Translations under genes and position numbers: made by a program | The notes under the pieces: generated by a model | Databases searched by the model: none | Told to the model about the DNA's origin: nothing | Seen by the model: only the letters and a program-made list of their open reading frames with translations | Assembly (NCBI GenBank): GCA_013330595.1 | Contig: DUIB01000009.1 | Coordinates: 74 to 64,073 of the forward strand | From: Candidatus Woesearchaeota archaeon | GTDB taxonomy: Archaea; Nanobdellota; Nanobdellia; Woesearchaeales; UBA9642 | Direction of reading: 5' to 3' | DNA: 64,000 bases | Part shown: one piece after another, positions 19,343 through 35,337 of the stretch | Position numbering within the stretch: the first letter of the stretch is position 1 | Layout: every line of letters begins with the position of its first letter

Positions 19343-19579
19343 GTGCATAAAATGGTTAGCTTAACATTATCTATACCAGAAGAACTGAAGGCAAGAATGG
19401 ATCAACACAGCGAGATTAATTGGAGCGAAGTCGCGAGGAAAGCAATAATGCAAAGATTAGAGGATTTTGAGTTTATGAAGAGAATTAGAGAGAAGAGCAC
19501 TATGACAGAGAAAGATGCTATTGAATTAGGCAGAATGATAAAAAGATCTACAGCCAAAAGATATAATGATTTTAAGTGA
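19343..19579 (+). CDS. ribbon-helix-helix (CopG/VapB-like) antitoxin
   Basis: It has the N-terminal beta-strand 'VSLTLSIPEELKARMD'. It overlaps the downstream PIN gene by 14 nt. Confidence 0.5.
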   Translation: MHKMVSLTLSIPEELKARMDQHSEINWSEVARKAIMQRLEDFEFMKRIREKSTMTEKDAIELGRMIKRSTAKRYNDFK

Positions 19580-19976
19580 AATTATGGAAATGGTTATTGA
19601 TGCGAATATTGTGTTTGCTGCAATAATTAAAAGGACGAAAACCTTAGAACTAATGTTTGAGGAAAATATTAGGTTATATGCTCCGGAAACAATATTAATA
19701 GAGCTTGAGAAGTATCAGGATTATCTGTGCAGAAAAGGCAACATGACTACTGAAGAACTTAAATCAATGATATTTAGGCTCAAGAATGTGATAACAATAA
19801 TTTATCTAGGAGAGCTAGTATCACAGATTCCTGAAGCAAGGAACATCTGTCCTGATCCAGGAGACATTCCCTATTTTGCTCTTGCCTTAAAGATGAATAT
19901 CCCAATATGGTCCAATGATAAAGAATTGAAGAAACAGAAGAGAGTAAAGATCTTTACGACAGATGAGTTGATGTGA
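19566..19976 (+). CDS. PIN-domain ribonuclease (VapC-like toxin)
   Basis: It has the 'VIDANIVFAAI' N-terminal acidic motif and a 'WSNDKEL' C-terminal motif. Confidence 0.6.
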   Translation: MILSEIMEMVIDANIVFAAIIKRTKTLELMFEENIRLYAPETILIELEKYQDYLCRKGNMTTEELKSMIFRLKNVITIIYLGELVSQIPEARNICPDPGDIPYFALALKMNIPIWSNDKELKKQKRVKIFTTDELM

Positions 19977-21993: not shown

Positions 21994-23844
21994 TTATTCT
22001 CCCTTATACTTCTTCACTAATTCCATGATCCTTGATCCAGGGAATTTGCCTCTGTACTTCTTCATGGTTTCGCCCATTAAGGCTGCAGAATTCAGATTAG
22101 GATGTTTGGATATCAGGTTGACAATGAATGATATCAATTCTTCTTCATTTGTTTTGTATATAGAGAAATCAATTGTATTGCCTTTTGCATATTCGACCAT
22201 GATCTCTATTATTGCTTCTTTTGCTAGGTCTCCTGAATTTAATTTTGCTAATATATTATCAGCCAGCTCTCTGAATCTTTCCAATTCAACATCAATCTCA
22301 AGATTGAATCTTGTCTTTACTTCTTTTGGTGTTGAAACCAAAATCTCAGCAATCGTTACTGGTTTTACTTGAGGATATTTCTTTACAAATATTTCAAAAT
22401 CATTCTCAAAAACTAATTCCTTTGCAACCTGTGCAGGCAATGAGTATTTTTTTTCAAATCTCACCACTTTATCCTTAATCAATTCTGGCATCTCAATTTC
22501 ACTTAGATCAGGGATTATTGTCTTTACATCTGTCTCGGGATACATTCTTGAGCTTCCAGGCATTGGCCTTAAGAATGATGATGTTCCATCTTCTCGAGCA
22601 TTGCGCACTTCTTTTGACAATCCTTTATCATAGAATGATTTGATTGTTTCATCAATCTTATTAAATGCAAATTTGCATTTTTCTTCTGTCCCGATAATCA
22701 TTATCAACGAATCTGAATCATCAAGATTCAATGCGTCATAAATTTTCTTTACTTCATCAGCAATCTTATATTTATTCAGATCCTCATCTGTATGTATCAA
22801 TCCGTTTAATCCAAATGCTTTTATCCTGTCGCTCAATTCTGAGCCAAATCTTCTGGAAGGATTGACTTCAAATCCGAAAAACCCTTTGAAATCCTTATAG
22901 AATTTTCCATAAACTCTTGAATCAACATTCTTTTTTATCATAGAACTCTTAGTATCAGAAAAATATTCAGTTAAATCTATAATTTCATTTGATAAATCAA
23001 GTTTTTTTATTCTTGCTCTTATCTCATCACGTAATTTCAACATAGTTAATTGTCTTAACACTTCAAGCTCAACAACAGTATCAATCATCCTTAAATCCTG
23101 AACACCTTTAATTTCTGTTCTTGCACCTTCTGCAATTGATACATTAACATCTTGCCTGATTGTTCCGAGTCCTCTCTTGACTTTTCCAGTAGAACGAAGC
23201 ATCATTCCAATAAATCCTGCAATATCCTTAACTTGTTTAGCTGTTCTCATATCAGGACCCGTCGCAATCTCAATCAATGGAATTCCTAATCTATCAAGAC
23301 GATAAATATCATGATCCTGGTCTCTTGAAATAATCCTTGCTGCATCCTCTTCCAAACATAATGTATCAATCTTTATCCTGTTTAATTTTTCATCACTTTC
23401 AACTTCAATAAAACCATTTCTTGCAATCAATGCAGTCCTCTGAAATCCAGATGTATTAGAACCATCAACAACAGTCTTTCTCATGACATGCACTTGATTA
23501 ACTGTCTCTGCATTCATCATCTTTGATAATTGAAGAACAATCTTCAATGCTTCAGGATTGATATTGAATGGGGGGCATTCATCAAGCTCAACGTCGCAGA
23601 TAGTATCATTATAGTATTCATACACATAATGTTTCTGCTTAGACATCTCATATGCAGCAGCAATATCAACAGATCCTGTCTCACCAGCACTTGCTCTTAA
23701 TACTCTCTTGATAGTTTTGTCAGGAGCATCCTCCCTAATATCAGAAGGACAATTGCAGAACAACTTATTTGTATCAAGCTGCTGATGTATCTCCAATCCG
23801 GCTTTTAGGCCTAGTTTGGCATAATCCACATCTCTCATGAGCAT
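21994..23844 (-). CDS. gatE: glutamyl-tRNA(Gln) amidotransferase subunit E
   Basis: The protein is 616 aa. The N-terminus has 'GLEIHQQLDTNKLFCNCPS', a GatB/E-like catalytic domain and a C-terminal GatB/YqeY-like tail. Confidence 0.85.
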   Translation of the reverse strand: MLMRDVDYAKLGLKAGLEIHQQLDTNKLFCNCPSDIREDAPDKTIKRVLRASAGETGSVDIAAAYEMSKQKHYVYEYYNDTICDVELDECPPFNINPEALKIVLQLSKMMNAETVNQVHVMRKTVVDGSNTSGFQRTALIARNGFIEVESDEKLNRIKIDTLCLEEDAARIISRDQDHDIYRLDRLGIPLIEIATGPDMRTAKQVKDIAGFIGMMLRSTGKVKRGLGTIRQDVNVSIAEGARTEIKGVQDLRMIDTVVELEVLRQLTMLKLRDEIRARIKKLDLSNEIIDLTEYFSDTKSSMIKKNVDSRVYGKFYKDFKGFFGFEVNPSRRFGSELSDRIKAFGLNGLIHTDEDLNKYKIADEVKKIYDALNLDDSDSLIMIIGTEEKCKFAFNKIDETIKSFYDKGLSKEVRNAREDGTSSFLRPMPGSSRMYPETDVKTIIPDLSEIEMPELIKDKVVRFEKKYSLPAQVAKELVFENDFEIFVKKYPQVKPVTIAEILVSTPKEVKTRFNLEIDVELERFRELADNILAKLNSGDLAKEAIIEIMVEYAKGNTIDFSIYKTNEEELISFIVNLISKHPNLNSAALMGETMKKYRGKFPGSRIMELVKKYKGE

Positions 23845-23887
23845 GAAGAAAGGAATCCTGAATTTAAATGTTGCGGAAGAATAAAAA
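23797..23887. repeat. left copy of a ~90-bp direct repeat (gatE 5' coding end plus promoter)
   Basis: It is repeated at 30032-30123 with about 85% identity. Together the copies bracket the DGR/toxin-antitoxin/purF-like segment. Confidence 0.6.
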
Positions 23888-23910
23888 ATATCCCAGCATG
23901 TTTAGCTTGA

Positions 23911-24004
23911 CTATTCCAACGAGGCGATTATTGTTGTTGTCTAGATTGTTCCTAGCATTAGCATTTGAATTATTGTTGAGCCTGGAAACAAACCACAAGT
24001 GCCC
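23911..24004 (-). repeat. DGR template repeat (TR), sense on the minus strand
   Basis: This 94-nt copy is near-identical to 24403-24496. Thirteen of 14 differences are at TR adenines (AAY codons; the in-frame TR translation is ...LNNNSNANARNNLDNNNNRLV...). It is not part of a full-length gene. Confidence 0.75.
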
Positions 24005-24259
24005 CCAGAGTAGCTCTTTCACTGAAAGTATGCACTGCCACTTCATTTCTAACAGAAATCCACAGATTTCTGGAAGATCCCAAAAATGTTTCATTTTTGA
24101 TATCTGTCGTAGCTGTATTTTATAACAACATCCGCATGTTATCGTAGTGAAAGGGCATGTAGTCCAGCTACTCCATATCGCACGATTTTTCGGAAATCAT
24201 GCAAAGTGCTGGGATAATAAGAACGTTAAAGAAGAAATATAAAAAGTTAATGAAAAAAA

Positions 24260-25045
24260 TTACAATTTTACTGAAGGGTCAGCAGAAGGCACATACAACA
24301 ATCCATTGTATTGGAATGCCTTTCCACCAATCAACGCATCCTTGACCTTGTCATCCAATGCAAAAGATGCCTGATTTTTGCTCGCCGACTGCGCCTTCGG
24401 CGCTACCCCAACGAGGCGAACATTGTCGTCGTCTAGATTGCCCCTAGCAATAGCATCTGAATCATTGATGAGCCTGGAAGCAAACCACAAGCGCCCTACG
24501 GGCACGTCTGGAGTGTCACTAACATAGACTCCCATAATCTTGCTGTAGCCATGATCTGCTTTTGCTTTATCGAATGCTTTTCCTGCATATTCTTCAAGCA
24601 GTGCTTGATCTCTAGCTAATGCTTTCCATATTGGGTTTGATATTACTTCTTTTCGTGATAATGATTCTCCTTTTGCGTATTTGTTGAGTTCATCTCTTGT
24701 GAATTCTTGTCCTTCTAACGCCTTGTATTCGTCATCAGAAATGATTAATGCTCCATTCTTTAATTTACTTTGTGGGTTGATTCTTCGCATGATTCCTGAA
24801 TCAAGAACAACCTTAGCATTTCCATTTGTATTGTAGAACTTTGCGTCTCCTGTATCGAAATAATTTTCCCAGAAAGTTTTTATCAGATCTTGGTCTCCAG
24901 AATTTAATGTTTCTAGTCTCCGCTGCATCAATCCCTGCGTTGACATTGGTGTTCTGCCTTCAGCAATAAGTAAAGGCATCTGGTCAGTATTTCTTCCATA
25001 AAATTCCTTATAATCTTTGACTGTATCATTAAGTTGTAAAGCCAT
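24260..25045 (-). CDS. DGR variable (target) protein, 261 aa; possible C-type-lectin-like variable ligand-binding region (fold uncertain)
   Basis: It carries the variable repeat at codons ~184-214 ('GRLWFASRLINDSDAIARGNLDDDNVRLVGV'). The corresponding TR codons are Asn-rich. Confidence 0.7.
   Translation of the reverse strand: MALQLNDTVKDYKEFYGRNTDQMPLLIAEGRTPMSTQGLMQRRLETLNSGDQDLIKTFWENYFDTGDAKFYNTNGNAKVVLDSGIMRRINPQSKLKNGALIISDDEYKALEGQEFTRDELNKYAKGESLSRKEVISNPIWKALARDQALLEEYAGKAFDKAKADHGYSKIMGVYVSDTPDVPVGRLWFASRLINDSDAIARGNLDDDNVRLVGVAPKAQSASKNQASFALDDKVKDALIGGKAFQYNGLLYVPSADPSVKL
24385..24420 (-). promoter_or_regulatory. IMH-like GC-rich VR 3' end (CGCCTCGTTGGGGTAG) followed immediately by the GC hairpin GCGCC-GAA-GGCGC
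   Basis: The TR end reads CGCCTCGTTGGAATAG, an IMH* differing by 2 nt. The 5-bp GC stem with a 3-nt loop is extremely GC-rich for this genome. It matches the canonical DGR homing cis-element layout. Confidence 0.55.
24403..24496 (-). repeat. DGR variable repeat (VR) inside the target gene
   Basis: It aligns with the TR. Adenine-specific substitutions include N->D/I/G/V, H->R and I->V. Confidence 0.75.
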
Positions 25046-25232
25046 TTTAATTACCTCCTCTTAGGATATATTTTATAAGATATATTAGAACTTATTTATA
25101 AAGGTTTCGATTATTTTGCCACTCGATAGTGGTATCCATATATGATTAAATTGTTGGTGAAACATTTTAAAGCATGACGAAACTTCAAACAGCCATAAAA
25201 TTCAGTTAAAAACTATAAAAACAAGGATTACA

Positions 25233-26864
25233 ATGTACAAAACAATATACGACTACGAAAACCTTGAACGGGCATTCATTAATGCCAGAAAAAGAAAAAC
25301 CAAGAAAAAATATGTAATGGAATTCGAGGACAAGCTTAAGGAAAACCTTCTAAAACTACAGGAAGAATTGAAGTCACAAACCTACAAGCCAAAACCTCTA
25401 GAGATATTTATTCTAAGAGATCCTAAAACAAGAAAAATATCAAAATCAGACTTTAGGGATAGAGTAATTCATCATGCACTCTACAATATCATTGAGCCAA
25501 TATTTGATAAAACATTCATCCATGATTCTTACGCCAACAGATTAACAAAAGGAGCACTAAAAGCTATAGAAAGATTTGATCACTTTAAGAGAAAAGTCTC
25601 AAAGAATAATAAAAGAGACTGTCATTTTCTTAAAGCAGATATTAGGCACTATTTCGATAATGTTGACCACCAAATACTTCTGGACGTCTTAGAAAGAAAG
25701 ATAGAAGACAAAAAAAGTATGTGGCTTATCAAACAAATTCTTAATAACCACAAGGAAAAAGAAGCAGGAAAAGGAATGCCACTAGGAAATCTTACATCTC
25801 AATTCTTTGCTAATGTTTACTTAAATGAGTTGGATCAATATGTAAAACATATTTTGAAGGCAAAATATTATATCAGATATGTTGACGATTTCATTATACT
25901 GCATGATTCTATAGACGTGTTGAAAAATTACGAAGAGAAAATAAATATTTTTTTGAAAGAAGTGCTGAAATTAGAGCTTCATCCAGACAAATCAAAAATC
26001 ATTCGCCTAGACAAAGGAGCTAATTTCTTAGGATTCCGAATATTCTACAATCACAAACTCATAAGAAAAAAGAACTTGAATAAATTCGAGAAAAACTTCA
26101 ACCAACTAAAGCAAGATTATAAAGAAGGAATTATTGACAGAGAAAAAGTCATGGAAAAATTCGAAGGATGGATAGCATACATTAGTCATGCAAATACATA
26201 TAAATATAGAATACACCTGACTAAAGAATTAAACAAAAATTTTCCAATAAAAAAACTAATAAGAATTGTCTATATAAAAAAACATGAAAATCATTTAAAG
26301 AGAACTGAATTGAGTGAGTTTCAGTATAGTCCACAAAAAACCTTGCAATTATTCGAACAAAAATTAAGCATAAAGCAAATTGCTGAACAACGTGGAATAA
26401 AAGAATCTACTGTATGGGGGCATTTCGCTAAACTAATAGAATATAACCAATGCACGGTGTGGGATATATTGCCTAGAGAAAAGGTAATTCTAATTCTTAC
26501 ACGTATTAATAACGAGCTGGACTTATTGAAGAGTATAAAACTAAGATTAAAAGATGAAAGCATAACTTATCCAGAAATAAATTGTGTTCTCGCAAGTGTA
26601 AAAGCAAAAAACAAGAAGAAAAACATTCTCTATCACTTCAAATGGTACAAGAGAAGTCACTGCTACAGAAAATGCTACGAAAATCTAGAACAAAGAAAAA
26701 TTTGCGAAATGAAATTCAAACACTTCATTGCAGAAAATCCTACATGGCAACTAACAAAAAGAGAATTCCTAATTGTCTTCAATAATCAAATGAATATATG
26801 CATTCTTCCTGATAAAGAAAAAAGAAGATACATGGGCTATAAAGAATTCAAGGAAAAGAAATAA
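25233..26864 (+). CDS. DGR-type reverse transcriptase with a ~200-aa C-terminal extension containing a predicted HTH
   Basis: It has RT motifs 1-7 ('RDRVIHHALYNII', 'FLKADIRHYFDNVDH', 'YIRYVDDFIILH'). 'LGNLTSQ' matches the DGR-RT signature [I/L]GxxxSQ, which replaces QGxxxSP of group II intron RTs. The C-terminal 'SIKQIAEQRGIKESTVWGHFAKLIE' is HTH-like. Confidence 0.85.
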   Translation: MYKTIYDYENLERAFINARKRKTKKKYVMEFEDKLKENLLKLQEELKSQTYKPKPLEIFILRDPKTRKISKSDFRDRVIHHALYNIIEPIFDKTFIHDSYANRLTKGALKAIERFDHFKRKVSKNNKRDCHFLKADIRHYFDNVDHQILLDVLERKIEDKKSMWLIKQILNNHKEKEAGKGMPLGNLTSQFFANVYLNELDQYVKHILKAKYYIRYVDDFIILHDSIDVLKNYEEKINIFLKEVLKLELHPDKSKIIRLDKGANFLGFRIFYNHKLIRKKNLNKFEKNFNQLKQDYKEGIIDREKVMEKFEGWIAYISHANTYKYRIHLTKELNKNFPIKKLIRIVYIKKHENHLKRTELSEFQYSPQKTLQLFEQKLSIKQIAEQRGIKESTVWGHFAKLIEYNQCTVWDILPREKVILILTRINNELDLLKSIKLRLKDESITYPEINCVLASVKAKNKKKNILYHFKWYKRSHCYRKCYENLEQRKICEMKFKHFIAENPTWQLTKREFLIVFNNQMNICILPDKEKRRYMGYKEFKEKK

Positions 26865-26982
26865 TCTTCGCTTTTATCTATAATTCTTCCGGAAAATTCT
26901 GCAAACTGCATTAAAAAAACCAAAACCTTTATATAGTAATTCATTATATTTCATTATGTTTTGTTATAAAAGGTGATGTTTT

Positions 26983-27228
26983 ATGGTTCAGGCAATGGTC
27001 GATATCGGAGAACATGAGGATAGGATCTTGACAATAGTCAAGGGCAAATTCGGTTTTAAGAATAAATCTGATGCAGTGAATTTTGTCATATCAAGATTTG
27101 AGGCTGAACTCTTAGAGCCAGAATTAAGACCTGAATTTGTCCAAAAAATCCAAAAATTAGATAAAAACAAAAAGTTCACAAGTTATAAAACTCTCTCTGA
27201 CTTAAGAAAAGAGATTGAACATGCATAA
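26983..27228 (+). CDS. putative antitoxin (small archaeal DUF2683-like protein) paired with the RelE-like toxin
   Basis: It is 81 aa and overlaps the downstream RelE-like gene by 14 nt. Confidence 0.4.
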   Translation: MVQAMVDIGEHEDRILTIVKGKFGFKNKSDAVNFVISRFEAELLEPELRPEFVQKIQKLDKNKKFTSYKTLSDLRKEIEHA

Positions 27229-27499
27229 ATTCTCGATTGAAGAAGGCTTGAGGAAAACCTTAAATAAATTATTCAAAAAAGATCGGGTTACTTATGAAAT
27301 TTTAATGAAAAAAATTGAAGAGATATTGTCAAATAATGATATCAGTCATTACAAGAATTTAAGAAGTCCTCTTCAAGATTTCAAAAGAGTCCATGTAAGA
27401 GGACCGTTTATCTTGACTTTCAAATATGTTGAATCAGAAGATAAAATAATATTCTATGATTTTGATCATCATGATTATATTTATAGAAAAGATAAATAA
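27215..27499 (+). CDS. RelE/ParE-family toxin
   Basis: The C-terminal 'KRVHVRGPFILTFKYVESEDKIIFYDFDHHDYIY' matches the RelE/ParE fold consensus. Confidence 0.6.
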   Translation: MNMHKFSIEEGLRKTLNKLFKKDRVTYEILMKKIEEILSNNDISHYKNLRSPLQDFKRVHVRGPFILTFKYVESEDKIIFYDFDHHDYIYRKDK

Positions 27500-27589
27500 T
27501 TTTCACTCTCATCCGTAATTCTTCCGAAAAATTCTGAGTAATGCATATAAAGAATCGCGTATTATCCTATTCAAAGAAAACCTTTATAA

Positions 27590-27621
27590 ATAAGATAATC
27601 TTACTAATAAGATAATCTTAT
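27590..27621. promoter_or_regulatory. tandem palindromic operator-like repeats (TAAGATAATCTTA x2) upstream of the AbrB antitoxin gene
   Basis: Two copies of 'ataagataatctta' lie 15-45 nt upstream of the 27637 start, followed by the RBS 'ggaggg'. An 'aaaacctttataaata' BRE/TATA-like element lies just upstream. Confidence 0.4.
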
Positions 27622-27636
27622 TATGGAGGGATCGTT

Positions 27637-27894
27637 ATGGCAAGCATCGATATAACAAGCATGAGCTCAAGAGGGCAGATAGTTATACCATTAAATCTGA
27701 GAGAGATGATGGGATTGAAGGAAGGCGAAAAATTTGCAGTCACAGGCAAAGAAGATACTATCATATTGAAGAAAATCCAGATGCCTTCTTTTGATAATTT
27801 CGATAAATTAATGCAGCAAACACAAGAATTTGCTAAGAAGAAAGAAATAAAACAAAAAGATCTTGATAGCGCTGTGCATAGGGCAAGAAAATGA
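27637..27894 (+). CDS. AbrB/MazE (SpoVT-AbrB swapped-hairpin) antitoxin
   Basis: It has the 'SSRGQIVIPLNLREMMGLKEGEKFAVTGKEDTIIL' motif. Its stop overlaps the ATG of the PIN gene (ATGA). Confidence 0.6.
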   Translation: MASIDITSMSSRGQIVIPLNLREMMGLKEGEKFAVTGKEDTIILKKIQMPSFDNFDKLMQQTQEFAKKKEIKQKDLDSAVHRARK

Positions 27895-28385
27895 ATGTTG
27901 TCTTAGATACAAATATTTTTATAAAAAAAATCCAGAAAATTTATTTCTAATGTATATATTACTGGATTTTTTGTATCCTAAAAATTCATTTCTATTGAAT
28001 TTTTATGATCTCGGGAATATTTTGGAAAGGAGATCCTTATAGGATACTCTTGTTATGGAAAGAAAACAGAATACAACTAATAAATTCAATAGAAATAATT
28101 GCTGAAATATCAAGAACATTATCTGATTTTAAAATTCAATTGTCAGAAGAATTGAAGAAAGGATGGATAACTTTAATTAAAAATAATAGTATTATTGTTG
28201 AGCCTAAAGAAAAAATCGCGATAATAAAAGATGATCCTACAGATAACAAATTTATTGAAGCAGCAATTGAAGGAAAAGCCGATTTTATAATAACAAACGA
28301 TAAACACCTCCTAAAAATCAAACAATTTAGAAATGTAAAGATAATTACGCCAAAAGAGTTCTTAAACACATACTTAACATTATGA
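27891..28385 (+). pseudogene. PIN-domain toxin (TIGR00305-like) split by a ~85-nt hairpin-containing insertion or frameshift
   Basis: The ATG at 27891 encodes 'MNVVLDTNIFIKK', the canonical PIN N-terminus, followed by stops at 27948 and 27996. The rest of the PIN domain ('ISGIFW...DPTDNKFIEAAIEGKADFIITNDKHLL') resumes at 28005. Confidence 0.5.
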
Positions 28386-28447
28386 TGTCATCTTATCCTA
28401 TTTCTGTATAAATAGCAAATATTATAAATAGGTAACTTTTCTCAAAT

Positions 28448-30025
28448 TTGATTAGAATGTGCGGGATAATAGGTGTTATTTCTAAAGAGAACAGCGAAGA
28501 GTTAGGTGCATTGATACAACATGGGCTATATCAATTGCAGAATAGGGGAGATTATTCCGCAGGGATTGCTGTCATAAAAAAATTACCTGTTTCAAGACAA
28601 GAATATAGGCGATTAAGAAGAATTGCAGCAGAACATACAGTATCAGATTTTGATCCATTAACAATAGAGAAAGGGCATGGAAAGGTTTCAGAAGTCTTTA
28701 ATGAGAATAGGTTAAAAAGACTTGTAGGATTCATGGGTGTCGGCCAGGTAAGATATCCTACAGCTGGTTATACAGTAAAGCCTGAACATAATAATCTTCC
28801 TCCTGAGGAAAAGAATTTGATGAAAATGGCAAACATTCAGCCAATACATACATCATTCGGCAGGATAGCTATAGTGCATAATGGTGATATACATAACTAT
28901 CATGATATCATGAGTGATTTTCTCAGTATAAAGATAAGGATCGCTAGCAGTAATGATTTAGAAGCCATACTGCTTATCTTTTCTAAAGAATTCTTTGACA
29001 TTGCAGAAAATGTTCCAGATTTTGAAAGATTAACATTAACAGTTAAAAAAGTATTTGAGTTGGCGAAAGGTACGTACAGTGCATTAGCTGTAGTGAATAA
29101 TGTTGGTCTTGTAGCATTCCGCGATCCAGAAGGCAGGAGACCGCTTTTCTTTGGCGTAAAGAAAGACCAAAATGGAGAAATAACTGATTATGCATTCGCA
29201 TCTGAGACAGTAGCCTTAGAAAAGATGTTATTCAAAGGAACATTAGAACAAAAGTATGCTACTGGAAGAAATGCTTTTGATGAAGTAAAACCCGGAGAAC
29301 TTGTCTTCATACGCAAAGACTTTAATTTCCATAGAAGACAGGTAATTGCACCTAATCTAAAGACTTGTCCTTTTGAAGGATCATATTTTGCAAGAGCATC
29401 CTCATTCATTAATAATACGAGAGTCAAAAGAATCCGACAGAACATTATCGAAGCTATGTGGAAAAGATTCATAACAACACCAAACTATGATAAAATAAAA
29501 GGCGATGAAGACAATACAATAATATGTCCAGTACCGAGAACTGCTGAATCAGCAGCGACACATCTTTCAAATCTTACAGGCATAAATTTTAATAACGCCA
29601 TAGAGAAACATCCTTTCTCTCCACGCATATTCCTACAACCTACACAGCAGCACAGGCTGATAGACACTATTGCAGACCATTATATCTTTGAAGAAGAGGT
29701 TAAGGGGAAAAAAATAATACTTATTGATGATTCAATAGTCAGGGGAACAACTTTAAGGCATATAATAAAATATTTGAAGGCGTTTAATGTAAAAGAACTG
29801 CATGTATTCATAACATTCCCTGAAATAAGACATCCATGTATGCATGCCATAGATTTTCATACAGCAGAAGAGCTTATTGCTGATGATAAAAATCTTGATC
29901 AGATAAAGACTGAACTAGGACTTGATCATAATGATTCATTGTTCTATGCACTTCCTGAAGAGATAAAGATTGCTAATAATTTCTTAAATATTAATATGTG
30001 CGATGAGTGTTATAAGAAGGCTTGA
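28448..30025 (+). CDS. amidophosphoribosyltransferase-like protein (class-II glutamine amidotransferase N-terminus plus PRTase domain)
   Basis: The N-terminus 'MCGIIGV' has the Cys nucleophile. The C-terminus 'KKIILIDDSIVRGTTLRHIIKYLK' is a PRPP-binding motif as in PurF. Confidence 0.55.
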   Translation: MIRMCGIIGVISKENSEELGALIQHGLYQLQNRGDYSAGIAVIKKLPVSRQEYRRLRRIAAEHTVSDFDPLTIEKGHGKVSEVFNENRLKRLVGFMGVGQVRYPTAGYTVKPEHNNLPPEEKNLMKMANIQPIHTSFGRIAIVHNGDIHNYHDIMSDFLSIKIRIASSNDLEAILLIFSKEFFDIAENVPDFERLTLTVKKVFELAKGTYSALAVVNNVGLVAFRDPEGRRPLFFGVKKDQNGEITDYAFASETVALEKMLFKGTLEQKYATGRNAFDEVKPGELVFIRKDFNFHRRQVIAPNLKTCPFEGSYFARASSFINNTRVKRIRQNIIEAMWKRFITTPNYDKIKGDEDNTIICPVPRTAESAATHLSNLTGINFNNAIEKHPFSPRIFLQPTQQHRLIDTIADHYIFEEEVKGKKIILIDDSIVRGTTLRHIIKYLKAFNVKELHVFITFPEIRHPCMHAIDFHTAEELIADDKNLDQIKTELGLDHNDSLFYALPEEIKIANNFLNINMCDECYKKA

Positions 30026-30031
30026 TCAACA

Positions 30032-30123
30032 CCATAATCTTTAATCTTAGTTTAGAGTAATCTAAATCTCCCATGAGCATAAAGAAAAGAATCCTTAATT
30101 TAAATGTTGCGGAACGAATAAAT
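30032..30123. repeat. right copy of the ~90-bp gatE 5'/promoter direct repeat
   Basis: Its reverse complement encodes MLMGDLDYSKLRLK (gatE: MLMRDVDYAKLGLK), preceded by the same TTTAAAT promoter block. Confidence 0.6.
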
Positions 30124-30474
30124 TTAGAGAAGGCCGTAAATTTTTCGTATACGAAAGAAATATTTATAAAGATCATTGTTGTCTTAAACATATTATCACT
30201 ATTGAGGGGTGTTAAATTGGCAAGCATTTTGTTTATAGATATTCCTTCAATACCTAAAGAATGGAAAGGCAACGAAAGAGAGACAGTCTCTTTGAAGTAT
30301 GCAGCTCATGATATTTTGTATGATAAACATAGTCTAAGATATCCTTACCAGCGTCAGAGAAAACAATTCACTAGAGGTTTTCTTACTATGACACAATATT
30401 TAAAGGAACATGGCCATACAGCGAAGTATATATCTTATTCTGATCCTGATTTTGATATTCAATTGCAACAGTAG
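30073..30474 (+). CDS. hypothetical protein
   Basis: This is an ORF only. Its 5' end lies inside the repeated gatE-promoter segment. Confidence 0.25.
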   Translation: MSIKKRILNLNVAERINLEKAVNFSYTKEIFIKIIVVLNILSLLRGVKLASILFIDIPSIPKEWKGNERETVSLKYAAHDILYDKHSLRYPYQRQRKQFTRGFLTMTQYLKEHGHTAKYISYSDPDFDIQLQQ

Positions 30475-30502
30475 CCTGAAGAAATAGACTGGAGGACATG
30501 AT

Positions 30503-31156
30503 ATGACTATTGCCTTTATAGAAGGACTGCCCGCAGGAGGAAAAACTCATCTCATAAAATATATCGAATCAAAAGGGTATAGAATTATTGATGAATTAGG
30601 GAGAGTGCTCAAGCCAGACGAATTTCCAGGTGATGGAAAAACAATTGACGAAATATTGAGAATACATGATTGGTTCATAGATAAAGAGCATGTCAGGTTC
30701 GAAAAAGCACCAGAAGGGATCTTTGAAAGATCATTTATGACACAATTAGGATATGCATTTGCGTATCCCAGATACATGAATCTTAATTCATTCGAGAAGG
30801 GTGTTGATAAATATGCTGATGCCATCTCGTCAGACTGGCTACCCTTGCCAGATTTACTTTTTTATGTCTCTATTAGTGTTGAAGACTCTATTAAGAGACA
30901 AAGATATAGATATTTAAATAAGGAACAGGCAGCTCTACCTGAATTCTGGACAACAGAATCATTTCTTAATGATCTCGTAAGAGCAGATAATGCTTTAATA
31001 TCATCAATGAGTGGTATTACGGTTGTGAAAGTAGATGGAAATCTTACGACAGAACAGAAATATAAGCAAGTGGAGCATTATCTTATGAATATGGACGCGT
31101 ATGCTTCTGCCAATAAAAATATTGATATAGATAGATTTTTGCAAGAACTAAAATGA
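30503..31156 (+). CDS. P-loop nucleoside/nucleotide kinase (deoxynucleoside-kinase/thymidylate-kinase-like)
   Basis: It has the P-loop 'GLPAGGKTH', an 'ERS' motif ('IFERSFMTQLGY') and a LID-like 'RQRYRY'. Confidence 0.45.
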   Translation: MTIAFIEGLPAGGKTHLIKYIESKGYRIIDELGRVLKPDEFPGDGKTIDEILRIHDWFIDKEHVRFEKAPEGIFERSFMTQLGYAFAYPRYMNLNSFEKGVDKYADAISSDWLPLPDLLFYVSISVEDSIKRQRYRYLNKEQAALPEFWTTESFLNDLVRADNALISSMSGITVVKVDGNLTTEQKYKQVEHYLMNMDAYASANKNIDIDRFLQELK

Positions 31157-32403
31157 ACAGTATTACACTTGTCTTGTTGTATGGAATAGTGATTTATTCA
31201 TGCATGATGGCAATCTCCCAAACAATAAGATTAAGACTAACTTTACAATATCTTTCAAGAAATAAAAAAGGTTATGAAGGAATTCAAAAACATAGAAATG
31301 TAATTATAATTATTCCTGTATATGAGGAGTCTAAAATTATACATAAAACAGTCCAACATTTTTCTCGAATAATTGATGATTCAATATCATTAGTTTTTGT
31401 AACTACACAAAAAGAAGGTAATCCTAAAGATAATTTAACACATATGGCATTACGTAAAGTTATTTCAAAAAACATTTCCATAATACATTATCCTTACACA
31501 AAAGGAGATAAATCCCATCAAATAAACTATGCAATTAATTCACTTTCGAAATTACGTATCAAAAAAGAGTTATACTTTGCAATATTCGATGCTGACTCTA
31601 GGCCTGATCCTAAAGGTATTTCTTATGTATTATGTGATACCAAGGCCGAACCAATTTATCAGATGTTAAGCATTTATTCTAATAATTATTCTCATTTATC
31701 TCCAATAAATAAAGCAAATGCATTATTCCAAACTCGCTGGTCTTTGAGCTTTGAAGGATATAATATGAAACGTAACTACACCTCTAGAAAATTAACTATT
31801 CCAATGTACACTATTGGTCATGGGCTTTTTATACGTGCCGATATAGCCTCCCGAAATAAATTTCCGACAGGAACTTTAGCTGAGGACATATCTTTAGGTT
31901 ACCGTTTATGCTATAAAGGAATATATCCAAAACTTGTTCCATATTGGGAATATTGTGGTGTTCCTTCAAGTATTGCTGTGAATATTAAACAAAGTGCGAG
32001 ATGGTTCGCAGGAGAATTAAATTTGTGGCATGAATATAAGCTCATTTCGAAAAAATCATGGTCTCTTAAAAGGCTGCTTCATACTATTAAGAGATCATTC
32101 TATCTTGCGCAATGGATTTTAGGTTCGATAATTATTTTATCGTTATTAATTATCTCTCTGCTATTCAAAGAATACCTATTGACAAGTATAACCCTGCTCT
32201 TTGTTTTCTTATATGCTTTCTATTTGCATCATATAACAAAAAAGATTTTTAATAAGAGATTCGTAAAGAATGGCCTGTCTTTATATTTTTACTTTATTAT
32301 TAAAGGCTTGCTCGACTGTTGTGGTCCTATATATGCAATTTACAGAATTATATTATCAAAGCTCGGCATAAGTCCATATTATTTTTATAAGACTCCAAGA
32401 TAA
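31153..32403 (+). CDS. family-2 glycosyltransferase with C-terminal TM segments
   Basis: It has 'IIIPVYEES' (GT-A NDP-sugar motif), a 'FDADSRPD' DxD-like motif and C-terminal hydrophobic helices. Confidence 0.5.
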   Translation: MNSITLVLLYGIVIYSCMMAISQTIRLRLTLQYLSRNKKGYEGIQKHRNVIIIIPVYEESKIIHKTVQHFSRIIDDSISLVFVTTQKEGNPKDNLTHMALRKVISKNISIIHYPYTKGDKSHQINYAINSLSKLRIKKELYFAIFDADSRPDPKGISYVLCDTKAEPIYQMLSIYSNNYSHLSPINKANALFQTRWSLSFEGYNMKRNYTSRKLTIPMYTIGHGLFIRADIASRNKFPTGTLAEDISLGYRLCYKGIYPKLVPYWEYCGVPSSIAVNIKQSARWFAGELNLWHEYKLISKKSWSLKRLLHTIKRSFYLAQWILGSIIILSLLIISLLFKEYLLTSITLLFVFLYAFYLHHITKKIFNKRFVKNGLSLYFYFIIKGLLDCCGPIYAIYRIILSKLGISPYYFYKTPR

Positions 32404-32404
32404 A

Positions 32405-33004
32405 TCAATAAGGGATATAATTTATTTTTTTTATTGAAAAATCATCATCTTCTATTACTAATTCATTAATACAGCAATTACCTTGCCCTATTTTGAATCT
32501 TAATCCATAAGGGATACGAAGATAATGTCCTATAATACCTATGTTTAGACTTCCATGACCAACAAGAAGAATTGTTTTACCCATATTTTTATTTATTATC
32601 TCTTTTAGTTTTGGGATAGCCCGTTTTTCAACATCCTTAAGGTTTTCTCCACGAGGAAATTTCGGATCTGTAAGATTAATCCAACCCTTATGCAATTCAG
32701 GATACTTTGTAATGACTTCGTCTCTTTTCATAAGAGTGCATATTCCACAATCTATCTCTATAAATTCCGGAATTGTTTTTATTTCTAACTTATGATGTTT
32801 TCTTATTATGTTTGCAGTGTCCTGTGCTCTTTTAAGAGGTGATGAGACAATGAGGTTTATCTCCTCTTTTGATAATCTCTCTGATAATGCATTAGCTTGT
32901 TTTATTCCATTAGGGGTGAGCATTGTTTCATGCTGTCCATCGAGCCTTCCTTCCTTGTTGCTGTCTGTCTCTCCATGTCTTACAATGATGAGTCTGGTTT
33001 TCAT
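32405..33004 (-). CDS. histidine phosphatase family protein (phosphoglycerate mutase-like)
   Basis: It has 'LIIVRHGETDSN' (RHG catalytic motif) and 'LLVGHGS'. Confidence 0.7.
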   Translation of the reverse strand: MKTRLIIVRHGETDSNKEGRLDGQHETMLTPNGIKQANALSERLSKEEINLIVSSPLKRAQDTANIIRKHHKLEIKTIPEFIEIDCGICTLMKRDEVITKYPELHKGWINLTDPKFPRGENLKDVEKRAIPKLKEIINKNMGKTILLVGHGSLNIGIIGHYLRIPYGLRFKIGQGNCCINELVIEDDDFSIKKINYIPY

Positions 33005-33567
33005 TTAATCACCTTTTCTAATACATAAATGCCTAAGTGAGCATACTTAGGATTTTTTGAATATGTATAGACCCTCTTAATAAAAATTCTTCTGAAATCC
33101 ATGCCTCTAAGAGAAGTATCACTCCAAAAATATTTGTGCTTTTCATAAGGATTTCCATTATAATCTCTCTGAGGATATGGGGTAATTGGTGTTGAAATAA
33201 CAACAAATACGTTTGCTTTTTTTATGATTTCTGATAATATTCTAGTTCCATCTCTTTTATTGAAATGCTCTATGATATCTATTAGCAAAACGCAATCATA
33301 TTTTTTTTTGTTATTTTTAAGAAATGTGCGAATATCTTCAAAATAAATAGTGTCATAGAATTTCCATTGAGGATGTTTATATGGTTTCCATATCTCCACA
33401 CCAGTCAGTTTAATATTTTTTTTAACTTTTTTTTTAATTATTGCCCCAAAATCCCCTTCTCCAATACCTAAATCAAGAACTGTAATACTTTTTTTATTTA
33501 TGGAAGGAATTTTATTAATTAAGTATTTTGTTATAGGATATTTATTGCATGGATCGCTTTTTGACAC
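33001..33567 (-). CDS. class I SAM-dependent methyltransferase
   Basis: Motif I is 'VLDLGIGEGDFG' and the post-motif is 'DCVLLIDIIEHF'. Confidence 0.55.
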   Translation of the reverse strand: MSKSDPCNKYPITKYLINKIPSINKKSITVLDLGIGEGDFGAIIKKKVKKNIKLTGVEIWKPYKHPQWKFYDTIYFEDIRTFLKNNKKKYDCVLLIDIIEHFNKRDGTRILSEIIKKANVFVVISTPITPYPQRDYNGNPYEKHKYFWSDTSLRGMDFRRIFIKRVYTYSKNPKYAHLGIYVLEKVIK

Positions 33568-33667
33568 ATTAACATAAAAAATTATTTATTTATAAATGTT
33601 TGCGATTATGTGTTGCTAATAGACTAATATAATAGATTATGGAAATATTTTTAAGTCAACTAATACC

Positions 33668-34099
33668 TTGAAAAGTATGAGCTTTAATGATACAGACAGT
33701 GCTATACAAGAAAAACCTAAGATTCTTGAAAAAGAAGTCAATATTTATTGGGATTGTATTATATCTGCAAGTGAAATTGCAGAATATTTTCAACTTCCTT
33801 ATGTGCCTATCGAGACATTGCCTAAAGAATCAATAATGCTTCCTTCGTTATTGTTTCCGGGTTTTCAAATATATAATGGAAGTAAATTTTTTCCGTTAAA
33901 GAAATACGCTTCTAATGGGAATTCTGAGGCATTAGTGAGAGAATTAGAGGAAGTTGTTAAAGATTTAGAAAATAAAGGTCATATTACCAATAATCATATT
34001 AATATATTTGTTCCGGATTTTAGTTTGAAGAATCATATTAAGTATTTTCAGGATAATTTTTCTTCTATAAAACATTATAAACAAAATGATTATGACTAG
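33668..34099 (+). CDS. hypothetical protein
   Basis: This is an ORF only. Confidence 0.25.
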   Translation: MKSMSFNDTDSAIQEKPKILEKEVNIYWDCIISASEIAEYFQLPYVPIETLPKESIMLPSLLFPGFQIYNGSKFFPLKKYASNGNSEALVRELEEVVKDLENKGHITNNHINIFVPDFSLKNHIKYFQDNFSSIKHYKQNDYD

Positions 34100-35337
34100 A
34101 ATTCTCCCCTAAAATCTTTCATGAATTCTTCTTTGACATCAAGTTTCTGTGATAGAAGCCATGCTAGCTTGATGAAAGATGTTTCAGGGCATAATGATGA
34201 TTGATTGCCAATGACTCCCAAGTCTTGTAGCTCCCTTCCAGGACTATAGACATTCATATTGACAACTCCTGAAATTGTCTGTGTTGCCATTACAACAGGC
34301 ATCTTCTTGCATAATTCAGCAATTGCCTCTTTTATCTTATTATGCTCTTTTGTGTTATCATCAATCTCAGTTATTGGCATATGCCCTAGGCCTGTTCCTT
34401 CAAGAATCAATCCATCAAAATTTTTGTATGAAAGCAATTCTTCATGATACATATTAGGATGACTTATGACTATTCCGATCTTTAACCTATCGTCAAATAA
34501 ATGTAATGTCATTTTTCCTTTTCCATTCAATGCAGAGCCAGGATATTCTGAAATGTATTCAATCTGTTTTGTGAAGAAATTGATTCTTGCAATTGGCTGC
34601 TTGTTTATCTGCTGGAAAGCATCTCTTCTTGAGGAATGCATTTTTCTTGCATTAAGCCCATTTAGTATAATGCAGGAATCATCTGAAATATTCTCATGCA
34701 TGCAGATGAAGACTCCATTAAGAGAGGTATTTGCAATAAATGAAACAGCACTAATAAGGTTTGTTGCACTATCACTGCTTCCTCTATCTGAGCTTCTCTG
34801 ACTGCCGACAATAACAACAGGCAATGGAAGATTCTCAAAAATAAAGCTTAATGCAGCTGAAGTATAATGCATTGTATCAGTTCCGTGAGTGATGATTATC
34901 CCCTTATATTTCCCTGATTCTTTTTCAATCTCTTTAGCAATAATATTATAATGCTCAAACCTCATATCATCAGACCACATATTCCTGAAAAGCCTGCTTT
35001 CAATATTTGCCAGATCTTTTATTTCAGGAAACATCTCTATCAATTCATGAGGCTCAAAGCTAGCATTGACAGCTCCCGTCTTGTAATCAACCTTGCTTGC
35101 AATAGTGCCACCCGTATGCAAGATAAGAATTTTCGGTAGAGAATGATCCTGGACATGATTCGGCTTAGAAATATCTTTTGTTTGATCATAAGATTGTTTC
35201 TCAATCCTCTCAACCTTATTCTTCAAGATCCCAATATTATACCCGCTATCCAGCTTGACAGTATAATGCTTATCATCCTCATTAACAAGGATCCCTTCAA
35301 TGACCTCATGCCTTAAATGCAGTTTTATCTGGTGCAT
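34096..35337 (-). CDS. gatD: glutamyl-tRNA(Gln) amidotransferase subunit D
   Basis: It has an asparaginase-type domain 'ILILHTGGTIAS', 'HGTDTM' and 'GTGLGH' motifs, and a GatD-specific N-terminal domain. Confidence 0.8.
   Translation of the reverse strand: MHQIKLHLRHEVIEGILVNEDDKHYTVKLDSGYNIGILKNKVERIEKQSYDQTKDISKPNHVQDHSLPKILILHTGGTIASKVDYKTGAVNASFEPHELIEMFPEIKDLANIESRLFRNMWSDDMRFEHYNIIAKEIEKESGKYKGIIITHGTDTMHYTSAALSFIFENLPLPVVIVGSQRSSDRGSSDSATNLISAVSFIANTSLNGVFICMHENISDDSCIILNGLNARKMHSSRRDAFQQINKQPIARINFFTKQIEYISEYPGSALNGKGKMTLHLFDDRLKIGIVISHPNMYHEELLSYKNFDGLILEGTGLGHMPITEIDDNTKEHNKIKEAIAELCKKMPVVMATQTISGVVNMNVYSPGRELQDLGVIGNQSSLCPETSFIKLAWLLSQKLDVKEEFMKDFRGEF

Follow-up and report, generated by a model that had tools for sequence, protein, structure and literature searches.

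Two copies of the gatE promoter and 5' end

We analyzed a stretch of 64,000 nucleotides (nt) of contig DUIB01000009.1 (positions 74 to 64,073 of the forward strand; assembly GCA_013330595.1) from a Candidatus Woesearchaeota archaeon, hereafter the window. It carries gatE, the gene for subunit E of the Glu-tRNA(Gln) amidotransferase, and a second, partial copy of the gatE promoter and 5' end lies about 6.2 kb away as a direct repeat. The two copies bracket a diversity-generating retroelement (DGR), toxin-antitoxin genes and a purF-like gene. The copies and their immediate surroundings comprise the following features, and the right copy is referred to as the relic.

21994..23844, minus strand: gatE, functional copy (Pfam GatB_N, 8e-57)
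23803..23886, minus strand: left copy, with the working gatE promoter, the probable leaderless start and codons 1-12/14
30026..30038, no strand: 13-nt filler at an illegitimate junction, from the purF-like stop codon (30023-30025) to the relic end
30039..30120, minus strand: right copy (relic), an orphaned gatE promoter with the first 12/14 codons
30121..30216, no strand: putative old divergent intergenic region, from the relic promoter to the radical-SAM stub
30217..30474, plus strand: truncated stub of a B12-binding radical SAM gene, comprising about 86 codons from its 5' end and forming the C-terminal part of the open reading frame (ORF) ORF133

The functional gene has 8000 homologs, most of the named ones being Woesearchaeota GatE. 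A repeat search aligned a 75-nt core, 23804-23878 with 30040-30114, at 84% identity (63/75) and a spacing of 6,236 nt. The original prediction had given about 85% identity over some 90 nt (23797-23887 and 30032-30123); this figure holds for the core, and a global alignment of the longer intervals yields 72/92 identical positions, or 78%. Homology to the gatE 5' ends of relatives sets the limits of the unit at 23803-23886 and 30039-30120. The repeat pair is the only one of its type in the window and well beyond what chance would give: each of two sub-patterns (23-25 nt) has exactly two occurrences in the 64 kb at no more than three mismatches (0.00-0.01 expected), and the local alignment score of the pair is 48, against a maximum of 12.5 across 27 other 2-kb chunks of the window.

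On the minus strand, either copy reads CCGCAAC followed by TTTAAAT (23868-23862 and 30104-30098), which is the arrangement of the archaeal TFB recognition element (BRE) and TATA box. Two ATGs follow in each copy, at distances of 24 and 30 nt from the first TATA-box base (working copy, 23844 and 23838; relic, 30080 and 30074), and the translated gatE starts read MLMRDVDYAKLGLK versus MLMGDLDYSKLRLK. The second ATG (23838) is likely the true start of a leaderless transcript, because its distance of 30 nt fits such a transcript, it is the sole ATG in a relative (L005, below), and the NCBI protein (P0001), which bears the name Candidatus Woesearchaeota GatE, has 614 amino acids (aa). Counted from this second ATG the repeat contains 12 gatE codons, and from the first 14, in agreement with the earlier description of each copy as a TTTAAAT promoter block plus about 13 codons. 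The longest identical run between the copies, about 23 nt (AATTTAAATGTTGCGGAA and its neighbours), is the promoter core, which is conserved in orthologs anyway. An Rfam search of both copies returned no known RNA.

Past codon 12/14 the homology of the right copy ends, and after the 13-nt filler the sequence enters the purF-like stop codon in antisense; the right copy is therefore a truncated relic. At its other end, 96 nt separate the relic from the start of a divergent gene stub, and its surroundings thus look like the old, decaying native context of a gatE 5' end. The stub is 45% identical to residues 5-86 of the 481-aa protein P0248, which has B12-binding and Radical_SAM domains. As called, ORF133 has 133 aa (30073-30474, plus strand), and the stub probably starts at a TTG at 30217. 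Only residues 52-133 of ORF133 have homologs; its first 48 or so codons have none, overlap the gatE relic in antisense, and are probably not coding.

We then compared synteny across the contexts of ten gatE relatives (77-89% aa identity) in nine related Woesearchaeota contig families, designated here by L numbers. In L005 and L011, the promoter core CCGCAACATTTAAAT precedes gatE; L010 has it with one change. The relic is 90.2% identical to the gatE 5' end of L005 (82 nt) and 88% to that of L010 (75 nt); over a 76-nt module, counted from the alignment, the values are 89.5% and 86.8%. Within the window, the gatE 5' modules of the relatives match only the two copies. Judged from sequence, the right copy is thus a displaced, truncated gatE promoter and 5' end rather than a generic promoter. 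No further relic of this kind occurs in 12 related loci; given that no other relative has one, we regard it as a one-off scar and not as a recurrent site.

The gatD-gatE spacer in related lineages

An identical gatE was found on 24 contigs examined, from Rifle-type groundwater metagenomes, and the arrangement is the same in all of them. The near-identical contigs L002-L004 differ from the window at few sites only, all outside the repeat region, and have no differences within 20-33 kb except an indel at 33301; they showed no population variation, no diversity in the variable repeat (VR) of the DGR and no deletion between the repeats. A peptide-pattern scan for gatE in contigs of species-representative genomes gave only an unrelated Flavobacteriales match, and scans of viral contigs with the DGR reverse transcriptase (RT), the purF-like gene and gatE found no relatives.

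In the more distant relatives, the DNA between gatD and gatE takes several forms. Read in the orientation of gatE, with > and < for gene direction, these are as follows.

gatD> <small ORF, then gatE (the minimal state): L006, L082, L083
gatD> <small ORF <rhodanese, then gatE: L007-9, L011-12, L016
gatD> <ORF123 <PIN_3 <MazE, then gatE: L010
<purF-like, then gatE: L013, where the contig ends
gatD> <purF-like <RelE <DUF2683, then gatE, contiguous: L005
gatD> <ORF143, methyltransferase, His_Phos, GT2, kinase-like, ORF133, relic: window, gatD side
<purF <PIN <AbrB <RelE <DUF2683 <RT, target>, template repeat (TR)>, then gatE: window, gatE side

The gatD-gatE spacer is a hypervariable recombination hotspot where accessory cassettes collect immediately upstream of the gatE promoter. 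Within the window, the spacer divides into the following segments.

23887..26912, no strand: DGR cassette of 3,026 nt, set between the upstream region of DUF2683 and the gatE promoter and lacking at this place in L005 (blastn breakpoints)
26862..26919, plus strand: r1, a partial copy of the region upstream of the AbrB cassette, joined to the 3' end of the RT gene
26913..27496, plus strand: cassette of DUF2683 (26983-27228) and a YafQ/RelE-family toxin (27215-27499), collinear with L005 at 82-89% nt identity
27497..28409, plus strand: cassette of AbrB/MazE (27637-27894) and PIN_3 (28005-28385), including r2, absent from L005 and adjoining gatE in L010
28410..30025, plus strand: purF-like gene (28448-30025) and its upstream region, with a class II glutamine amidotransferase and a phosphoribosyltransferase (PRTase) part
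30503..33667, no strand: accessory block of P-loop kinase-like, GT2 glycosyltransferase, His_Phos_1 and methyltransferase genes, in the spacer of no relative
33668..34099, plus strand: ORF143, a fast-evolving small gene convergent with gatD and a conserved gatD neighbour in relatives
34096..35337, minus strand: gatD (NF003217 GatD, 2.7e-123), the other conserved border of the variable spacer

The blastn comparison with L005 showed collinearity at 83-86% identity, with three extra blocks in the window: 23887-26912, 27497-28409 and 30019-34097, the last beginning with the relic. Collinearity ends at the purF stop at 30025, some 13-14 nt from the end of the relic, and the filler past this stop has no similarity to L005. 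L005 has no relic, and its gatD and purF stop codons abut. In L010, AbrB/PIN with an r2-type upstream region stands directly beside the gatE promoter. All of the contents originally reported between the repeats (TR, DGR target, RT, RelE, AbrB/PIN and the purF-like gene) were recovered by domain matches and by the TR/VR pattern. A search between the repeats found no tRNA genes. The further proposal that these 6.2 kb constitute one island did not survive the comparison: modules adjoin gatE separately in L013, L005 and L010, and the DGR and AbrB/PIN are separate blocks. Because the modules have separate distributions in relatives, we regard the 6 kb as a stack of separately acquired cassettes.

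The genes themselves gave discordant phylogenies. Full-length gatE is 85.7% identical to L005 and 78.6% to L010, and groups as sister to L005 (1000/1000 bootstraps). In contrast, the gatD 3' end (86.0% to L010, 78.7% to L005) and EamA (86.1% to L010, 76.3% to L005) are each sister to L010, again with 1000/1000 bootstraps. The purF-like gene and RelE, like gatE, group with L005. A sliding-window search for the crossover point inside gatE gave no clean switch, and only one patch of 300 nt (codons of about 100-200) is equally or more L010-like. The gene order downstream of gatE (TED-like, TrmB, PIN_2, RHH_12) is that of L010 and L013, unlike that of L005. Like the repeat itself, the modular presence and absence of cassettes, the breakpoints and this discordance are direct observations.

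Origin of the orphaned gatE 5' end

The direction, order and mechanism of events are what we infer from these observations. We consider it somewhat probable that a purF-to-gatE segment was imported through one homologous and one illegitimate crossover, which orphaned the resident gatE 5' end, and that AbrB/PIN and the DGR came later. The resident backbone would have been L010-like, with its gatE promoter beside a divergent B12-radical-SAM gene that is now the truncated stub, and the donor a related, L005-like Woesearchaeota lineage. The incoming segment would have comprised the 3' end of the purF-like gene, the DUF2683/RelE pair and gatE with its own promoter, replacing the resident gatE. The homologous crossover would have fallen in or just beyond gatE; the illegitimate one would have joined the purF stop, through 13 nt of filler, to codon 12/14 of the resident gatE, leaving the resident promoter, leaderless start and first 12-14 codons orphaned at 30039-30120. 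This would be homology-facilitated illegitimate recombination (HFIR) or an equivalent one-sided event; a site-specific recombinase would not be involved. AbrB/PIN (27497-28409) and the 3,026-bp DGR (23887-26912) would be separate, later nested additions. The DGR would have brought with it the r1 fragment of the AbrB-upstream region, and this fragment suggests that the DGR came from a context beside an AbrB/PIN cassette. The working 5' module may have been replaced once more together with the DGR, or its N-terminal codons may simply be variable. The original prediction of an insertion at the gatE 5' end, with that end duplicated or replaced, thus stands in part: DNA does lie between the relic and a working gatE with a replacement 5' end. 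However, gatE is L005-like and both flanks are L010-like, which fits an import including gatE rather than an element landing in gatE.

HFIR has been proposed for orphaned gene ends in the effector-immunity arrays of type VI secretion systems (T6SS) and in Rhs arrays (PMC5361080), and the original HFIR work, as cited there, concerned Acinetobacter, S. pneumoniae and P. stutzeri. Of four marks expected from an event of this type, three are present: the L005-collinear tract is followed, after 13 nt, by a truncated end of the anchor gene, the tract including the anchor gatE has a phylogeny unlike that of both flanks, and the donor arrangement is contiguous in L005 at 82-89% nt identity. The fourth, the recipient in its pre-event state, was seen in no relative. 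The locus resembles the orphan arrays of V. cholerae T6SS and of Rhs/contact-dependent inhibition (CDI) systems (PMC5361080) in that a module is anchored on a conserved gene with an illegitimate join at the far end, in that a resident gene end is displaced and kept as an orphan, and in the build-up of conflict-type genes through repeated events. It differs in that the anchor is the housekeeping gene gatE, the orphan is a promoter and 5' end rather than a 3' toxin tip, the host belongs to DPANN, and there is one orphan, with none found in relatives; the mechanism here is our inference.

Several observations weigh against this reconstruction. The TED-like and TrmB genes share only about 75% identity with their L010 counterparts, so the backbone itself is mosaic. 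The predicted pre-event state, with the radical-SAM block adjoining gatE, occurs in no relative. In the 76-nt module it is the working copy that stands apart, with identities of 77.6% to L005 and 76% to L010, and its 5' module diverges more from L005 than the remainder of gatE does. A simple L005-like import predicts that the working copy, and not the relic, is the L005-like one; the reconstruction must assume either that promoter and 5' end were later replaced along with the DGR or that a variable N-terminus evolved fast. The position of AbrB/PIN within the L005-like tract calls for further events. There are three informative lineages, and the direction of transfer rests on parsimony and on the position of the scar. 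To our knowledge, HFIR has not been demonstrated in DPANN archaea.

We also considered the opposite polarity, in which the ancestor was L005-like and a 4-kb block (30039-34097) was imported together with the promoter and 5' fragment of a donor gatE. This block, holding ORF143, the methyltransferase, His_Phos, GT2 and kinase-like genes and the radical-SAM stub, would have stood directly upstream of gatE in the donor and would have entered through a homologous anchor in gatD and an illegitimate join at the purF 3' end. The block from 30019 to 34097, relic included, is indeed extra DNA relative to L005, the gatD 3' end of the window is L010-like and not L005-like, and a relic of donor origin would explain its difference from the working copy. 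However, the far flank past gatE (EamA and TED-TrmB-PIN_2) is L010- or L013-like, which requires a second event. In addition, most relatives have a homolog of ORF143 as the ancestral neighbour of gatD (blastp identity of 27-29%; E-values of 2e-11 to ORF126 of L007 and 2e-7 to ORF123 of L010), so that L005 looks like a deleted state. We therefore consider this polarity unlikely.

Islands mobilized by integrases that target tRNA or protein genes, among them archaeal elements of the SSV and pTN3 types, duplicate or replace the end of the target gene. The window resembles them in that foreign DNA lies between direct repeats of the end of a target gene, and the proximal copy restores the gene as an element-borne copy does. 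The whole 6.2 kb could accordingly be one integrative island that carried its own promoter and 14 codons into the gatE 5' end, either by site-specific insertion or as a circle through a single Campbell-type crossover, with the repeats as attL and attR. The divergence of the working copy from orthologs spans roughly the length of the repeat, as this scheme would have it, and the closest relative of the DGR RT (66% aa identity) lies beside two Phage_integrase genes in another genome. Nevertheless, as the original prediction had noted, the window holds no integrase, whether intact, split or decayed: scans with Pfam, NCBIfam and PADLOC models of the called ORFs of at least 81 aa from 24260 to 31156 found no recombinase, and tblastn of the two integrases from the related DGR element against the 64 kb gave nothing (best E = 3). 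Identity between the repeats is only 84%, and outside the conserved promoter no long identical core is obvious. The content is distributed piecemeal in relatives, the DGR and AbrB/PIN have clean breakpoints of their own, and neither inheritance as a unit nor, among the assembled contigs, an excised form was found. An empty site, with gatE directly preceded by the sequence now at 30124 onward, was found in no relative, and L005 has purF-TA-gatE without a distal repeat. The GC content of the enclosed DNA is not distinct from its surroundings, and all 24 contigs examined share one arrangement. Taken together, a single island is improbable.

A tandem duplication from the purF 3' end to gatE codon 14, with the first copy later lost or replaced except at its distal end, would produce exactly the observed joint between gatE codon 14 and the purF 3' end. 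However, the DNA upstream of the relic is unrelated (the radical-SAM stub) and is joined at the promoter boundary seen in orthologs, so a precise replacement would be needed. The relic also resembles the gatE 5' ends of other lineages more than the copy that would be its sister, and the discordant phylogeny is left unexplained. We regard this scheme as very doubtful. A generic promoter block shared by unrelated genes is hardly credible: the BRE/TATA core is the most conserved part of the repeat, but the similarity extends over 12-14 gatE codons, only two copies exist in the 64 kb at three mismatches or fewer, and the motif, whose presence before unrelated genes would have spoken against the original prediction, is found only at gatE in the window and in relatives; 60 exact 18-mer matches on metagenome contigs without similarity to the window (blastn, E-value of 1e-6 or less) were taken as chance.

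The enclosed cassettes and the biology of the hotspot

The DGR cassette contains the following parts.

23889..24216, minus strand: DGR non-coding RNA, with the Rfam RT-16 motif (24005-24212) directly 5' of the TR
23911-24004, minus strand: TR
24260..25045, minus strand: target gene, with the VR at 24403-24496 (aa 184-215 of 261)
25233..26864, plus strand: RT with a fused C-terminal HTH_40 (RVT_1, 2.5e-25; HTH_40, 1.2e-17)

The TR and VR differ at 14 positions, 13 of them at TR adenines (minus strand). With an RT, an adenine-specific TR/VR pair and a VR within a coding gene, the system is a DGR. The VR stops short of the C-terminus of the target, as 46 residues follow it (aa 216-261), and the target protein matched nothing in Pfam or NCBIfam. 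The RT has 7,359 homologs at E-values of 1e-40 or below, and all 120 among the matches listed combine RVT_1 and HTH_40; those listed with a source name come from Woesearchaeota, Nanoarchaeota or unclassified archaea. In the nearest relative (L079:8001-12487; RT 66% identical at the aa level), the DGR adjoins the two Phage_integrase genes mentioned above, and the TR/RT-16 region lies about 5 kb from the RT. No match to Avd or HRDC was found among the scanned ORFs, small ORFs not having been searched exhaustively; DGRs lacking Avd are known (PMC5758913).

The RT-16 match (Rfam RF03019) scored 63.4 bits, against a gathering score of 50. A 10-bp stem formed by TATCCCAGCA (24216-24207) and TGCTGGGATA (23898-23889) encloses RT-16 and the TR, and the minimum free energy fold of the RNA includes this closing stem (z = -3.6). 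Both arms of the stem and the 3' flank of the TR are conserved in the L079 DGR. The RT-16 motif, reported by Weinberg et al. in 2017, is said to have no known function. Given that it abuts the TR, and that the stem and the TR 3' flank are conserved in L079, our comparison suggests that RT-16 forms the 5' portion of the DGR's template RNA in this archaeal family. The cassette ends 2 nt beyond the stem, and homology to L079 stops at the same place; the DGR is therefore a complete unit, placed just upstream of the gatE promoter. The DGR does not use the repeated gatE module. Inverted arms of 24 nt (23867-23890 and 26875-26898, 79% complementary) were considered as terminal inverted repeats and rejected, since 70 similar pairs occur in the same 14 kb.

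This DGR is of the kind known from groundwater DPANN (PMC5006420, PMC5758913). It agrees with the DPANN and candidate phyla radiation (CPR) groundwater DGRs described in those papers in its RT, adenine-specific TR/VR pair and single target, and in that no Avd was detected among scanned ORFs; nothing fundamental differs. The comparison also draws on the survey of Paul et al., to the extent that it is cited in PMC5758913. Local details are the RT divergent from the target and TR, the fused HTH_40, and RT-16 abutting the TR.

Beside the DGR, r1 (26862-26919) and r2 (27497-27554) form a 58-nt direct repeat of about 76% identity (66 nt with flanks) that exactly flanks the L005-collinear DUF2683/RelE cassette, and both match the region upstream of AbrB in L010. 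They are a second junction duplication in the gatD-gatE hotspot. We also noted a 9-mer, ATTCTTCCG, which occurs three times in the 64 kb (0.36 expected), each time at a cassette junction: 23874-23882 (minus strand), 26883-26891 and 27518-27526 (both plus strand). Two of the sites lie in r1 and r2, and the third forms the upstream border of the gatE promoter, inverted across the DGR cassette; this distribution may be due to chance. An integron-like cassette array was considered and rejected: there is no integrase, and the one repeat between cassettes, r1/r2, duplicates the AbrB-upstream region and is not a shared attC-like palindrome. A further toxin-antitoxin pair, RHH_12 with PIN_2 (19352-19976, minus strand), lies past TrmB on the other side of gatE and is conserved in L010, L011 and L013, which makes three toxin-antitoxin pairs inside 10 kb.

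Against the purF model TIGR01134, which has a cutoff of 350, the purF-like gene reached only 215.8 bits. Its PRTase half has weak matches to ShosT and PRTase_III-A among the PADLOC models, and the gene may not be a metabolic purF. Its nt identity to L005 is 83%. Its 5' end is 84.5-88.5% identical to that of L013 (L013:1-277), whereas the adjacent gatE genes are only 76% identical, and this difference suggests that the gene was exchanged between lineages as a cassette.

In the accessory block on the far side of the relic, the first 110 or so codons of the kinase-like gene (30503-30832) recur at 80% nt identity in L077:66-383 and L078:1782-2099, as a truncated 170-aa ORF on unrelated contigs, in overlap with small antitoxin-like genes; recombination has scattered this gene fragment as well. 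When the pre-event state was sought through the kinase-like gene, these 5' fragments in unrelated contexts were the only close homolog. In L003 (JGI 3300009296), a 1-nt deletion at 33301 splits the methyltransferase gene (33001-33567) into two ORFs; it appears that the block is decaying or that the deletion is an assembly error.

Hotspots of horizontal gene transfer between conserved core genes are known from pangenome studies of bacterial chromosomes. The locus resembles them in that core genes, here gatD and gatE, bracket a spacer with at least six different gene contents across the nine related contig families. It also resembles the accretion seen in defence islands, as the spacer is rich in toxin-antitoxin pairs together with a DGR and a PRTase-type gene. 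It differs from known hotspots in belonging to a Woesearchaeota clade represented by metagenome contigs only, and in that the spacer splits two subunit genes of one enzyme.

A broader notion, which we regard as a long shot, is that the boundary of the gatE promoter serves in this clade as a recurrent, integrase-independent landing pad for conflict-type cassettes (DGR, toxin-antitoxin and purF-like). Capture may then occur through recombination anchored in the essential gatE, with older cassettes pushed outward. If this were true, the landing pad would be a functional analogue of the integron or of the 'sequential displacement' in T6SS arrays, DGRs would spread among DPANN genomes without phage or plasmid vehicles, and the 9-mer could mark cassette joints.

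Short of this, the repeat is an ordinary recombination scar at an unusually well resolved hotspot. Alone it is a scar without demonstrated function, and its value is that of a physical marker; together with the five or six alternative states of the spacer in relatives, it makes the history of one archaeal hotspot readable at base-pair resolution. A tiny DPANN genome has gained a DGR, two toxin-antitoxin pairs and a purF-like gene, each separately, between the genes for two subunits of an essential enzyme, apparently by ordinary recombination between related lineages and not by a mobile element. The 3,026-bp cassette is a complete minimal DGR unit, and thus bears on how DGRs move without a visible vehicle.

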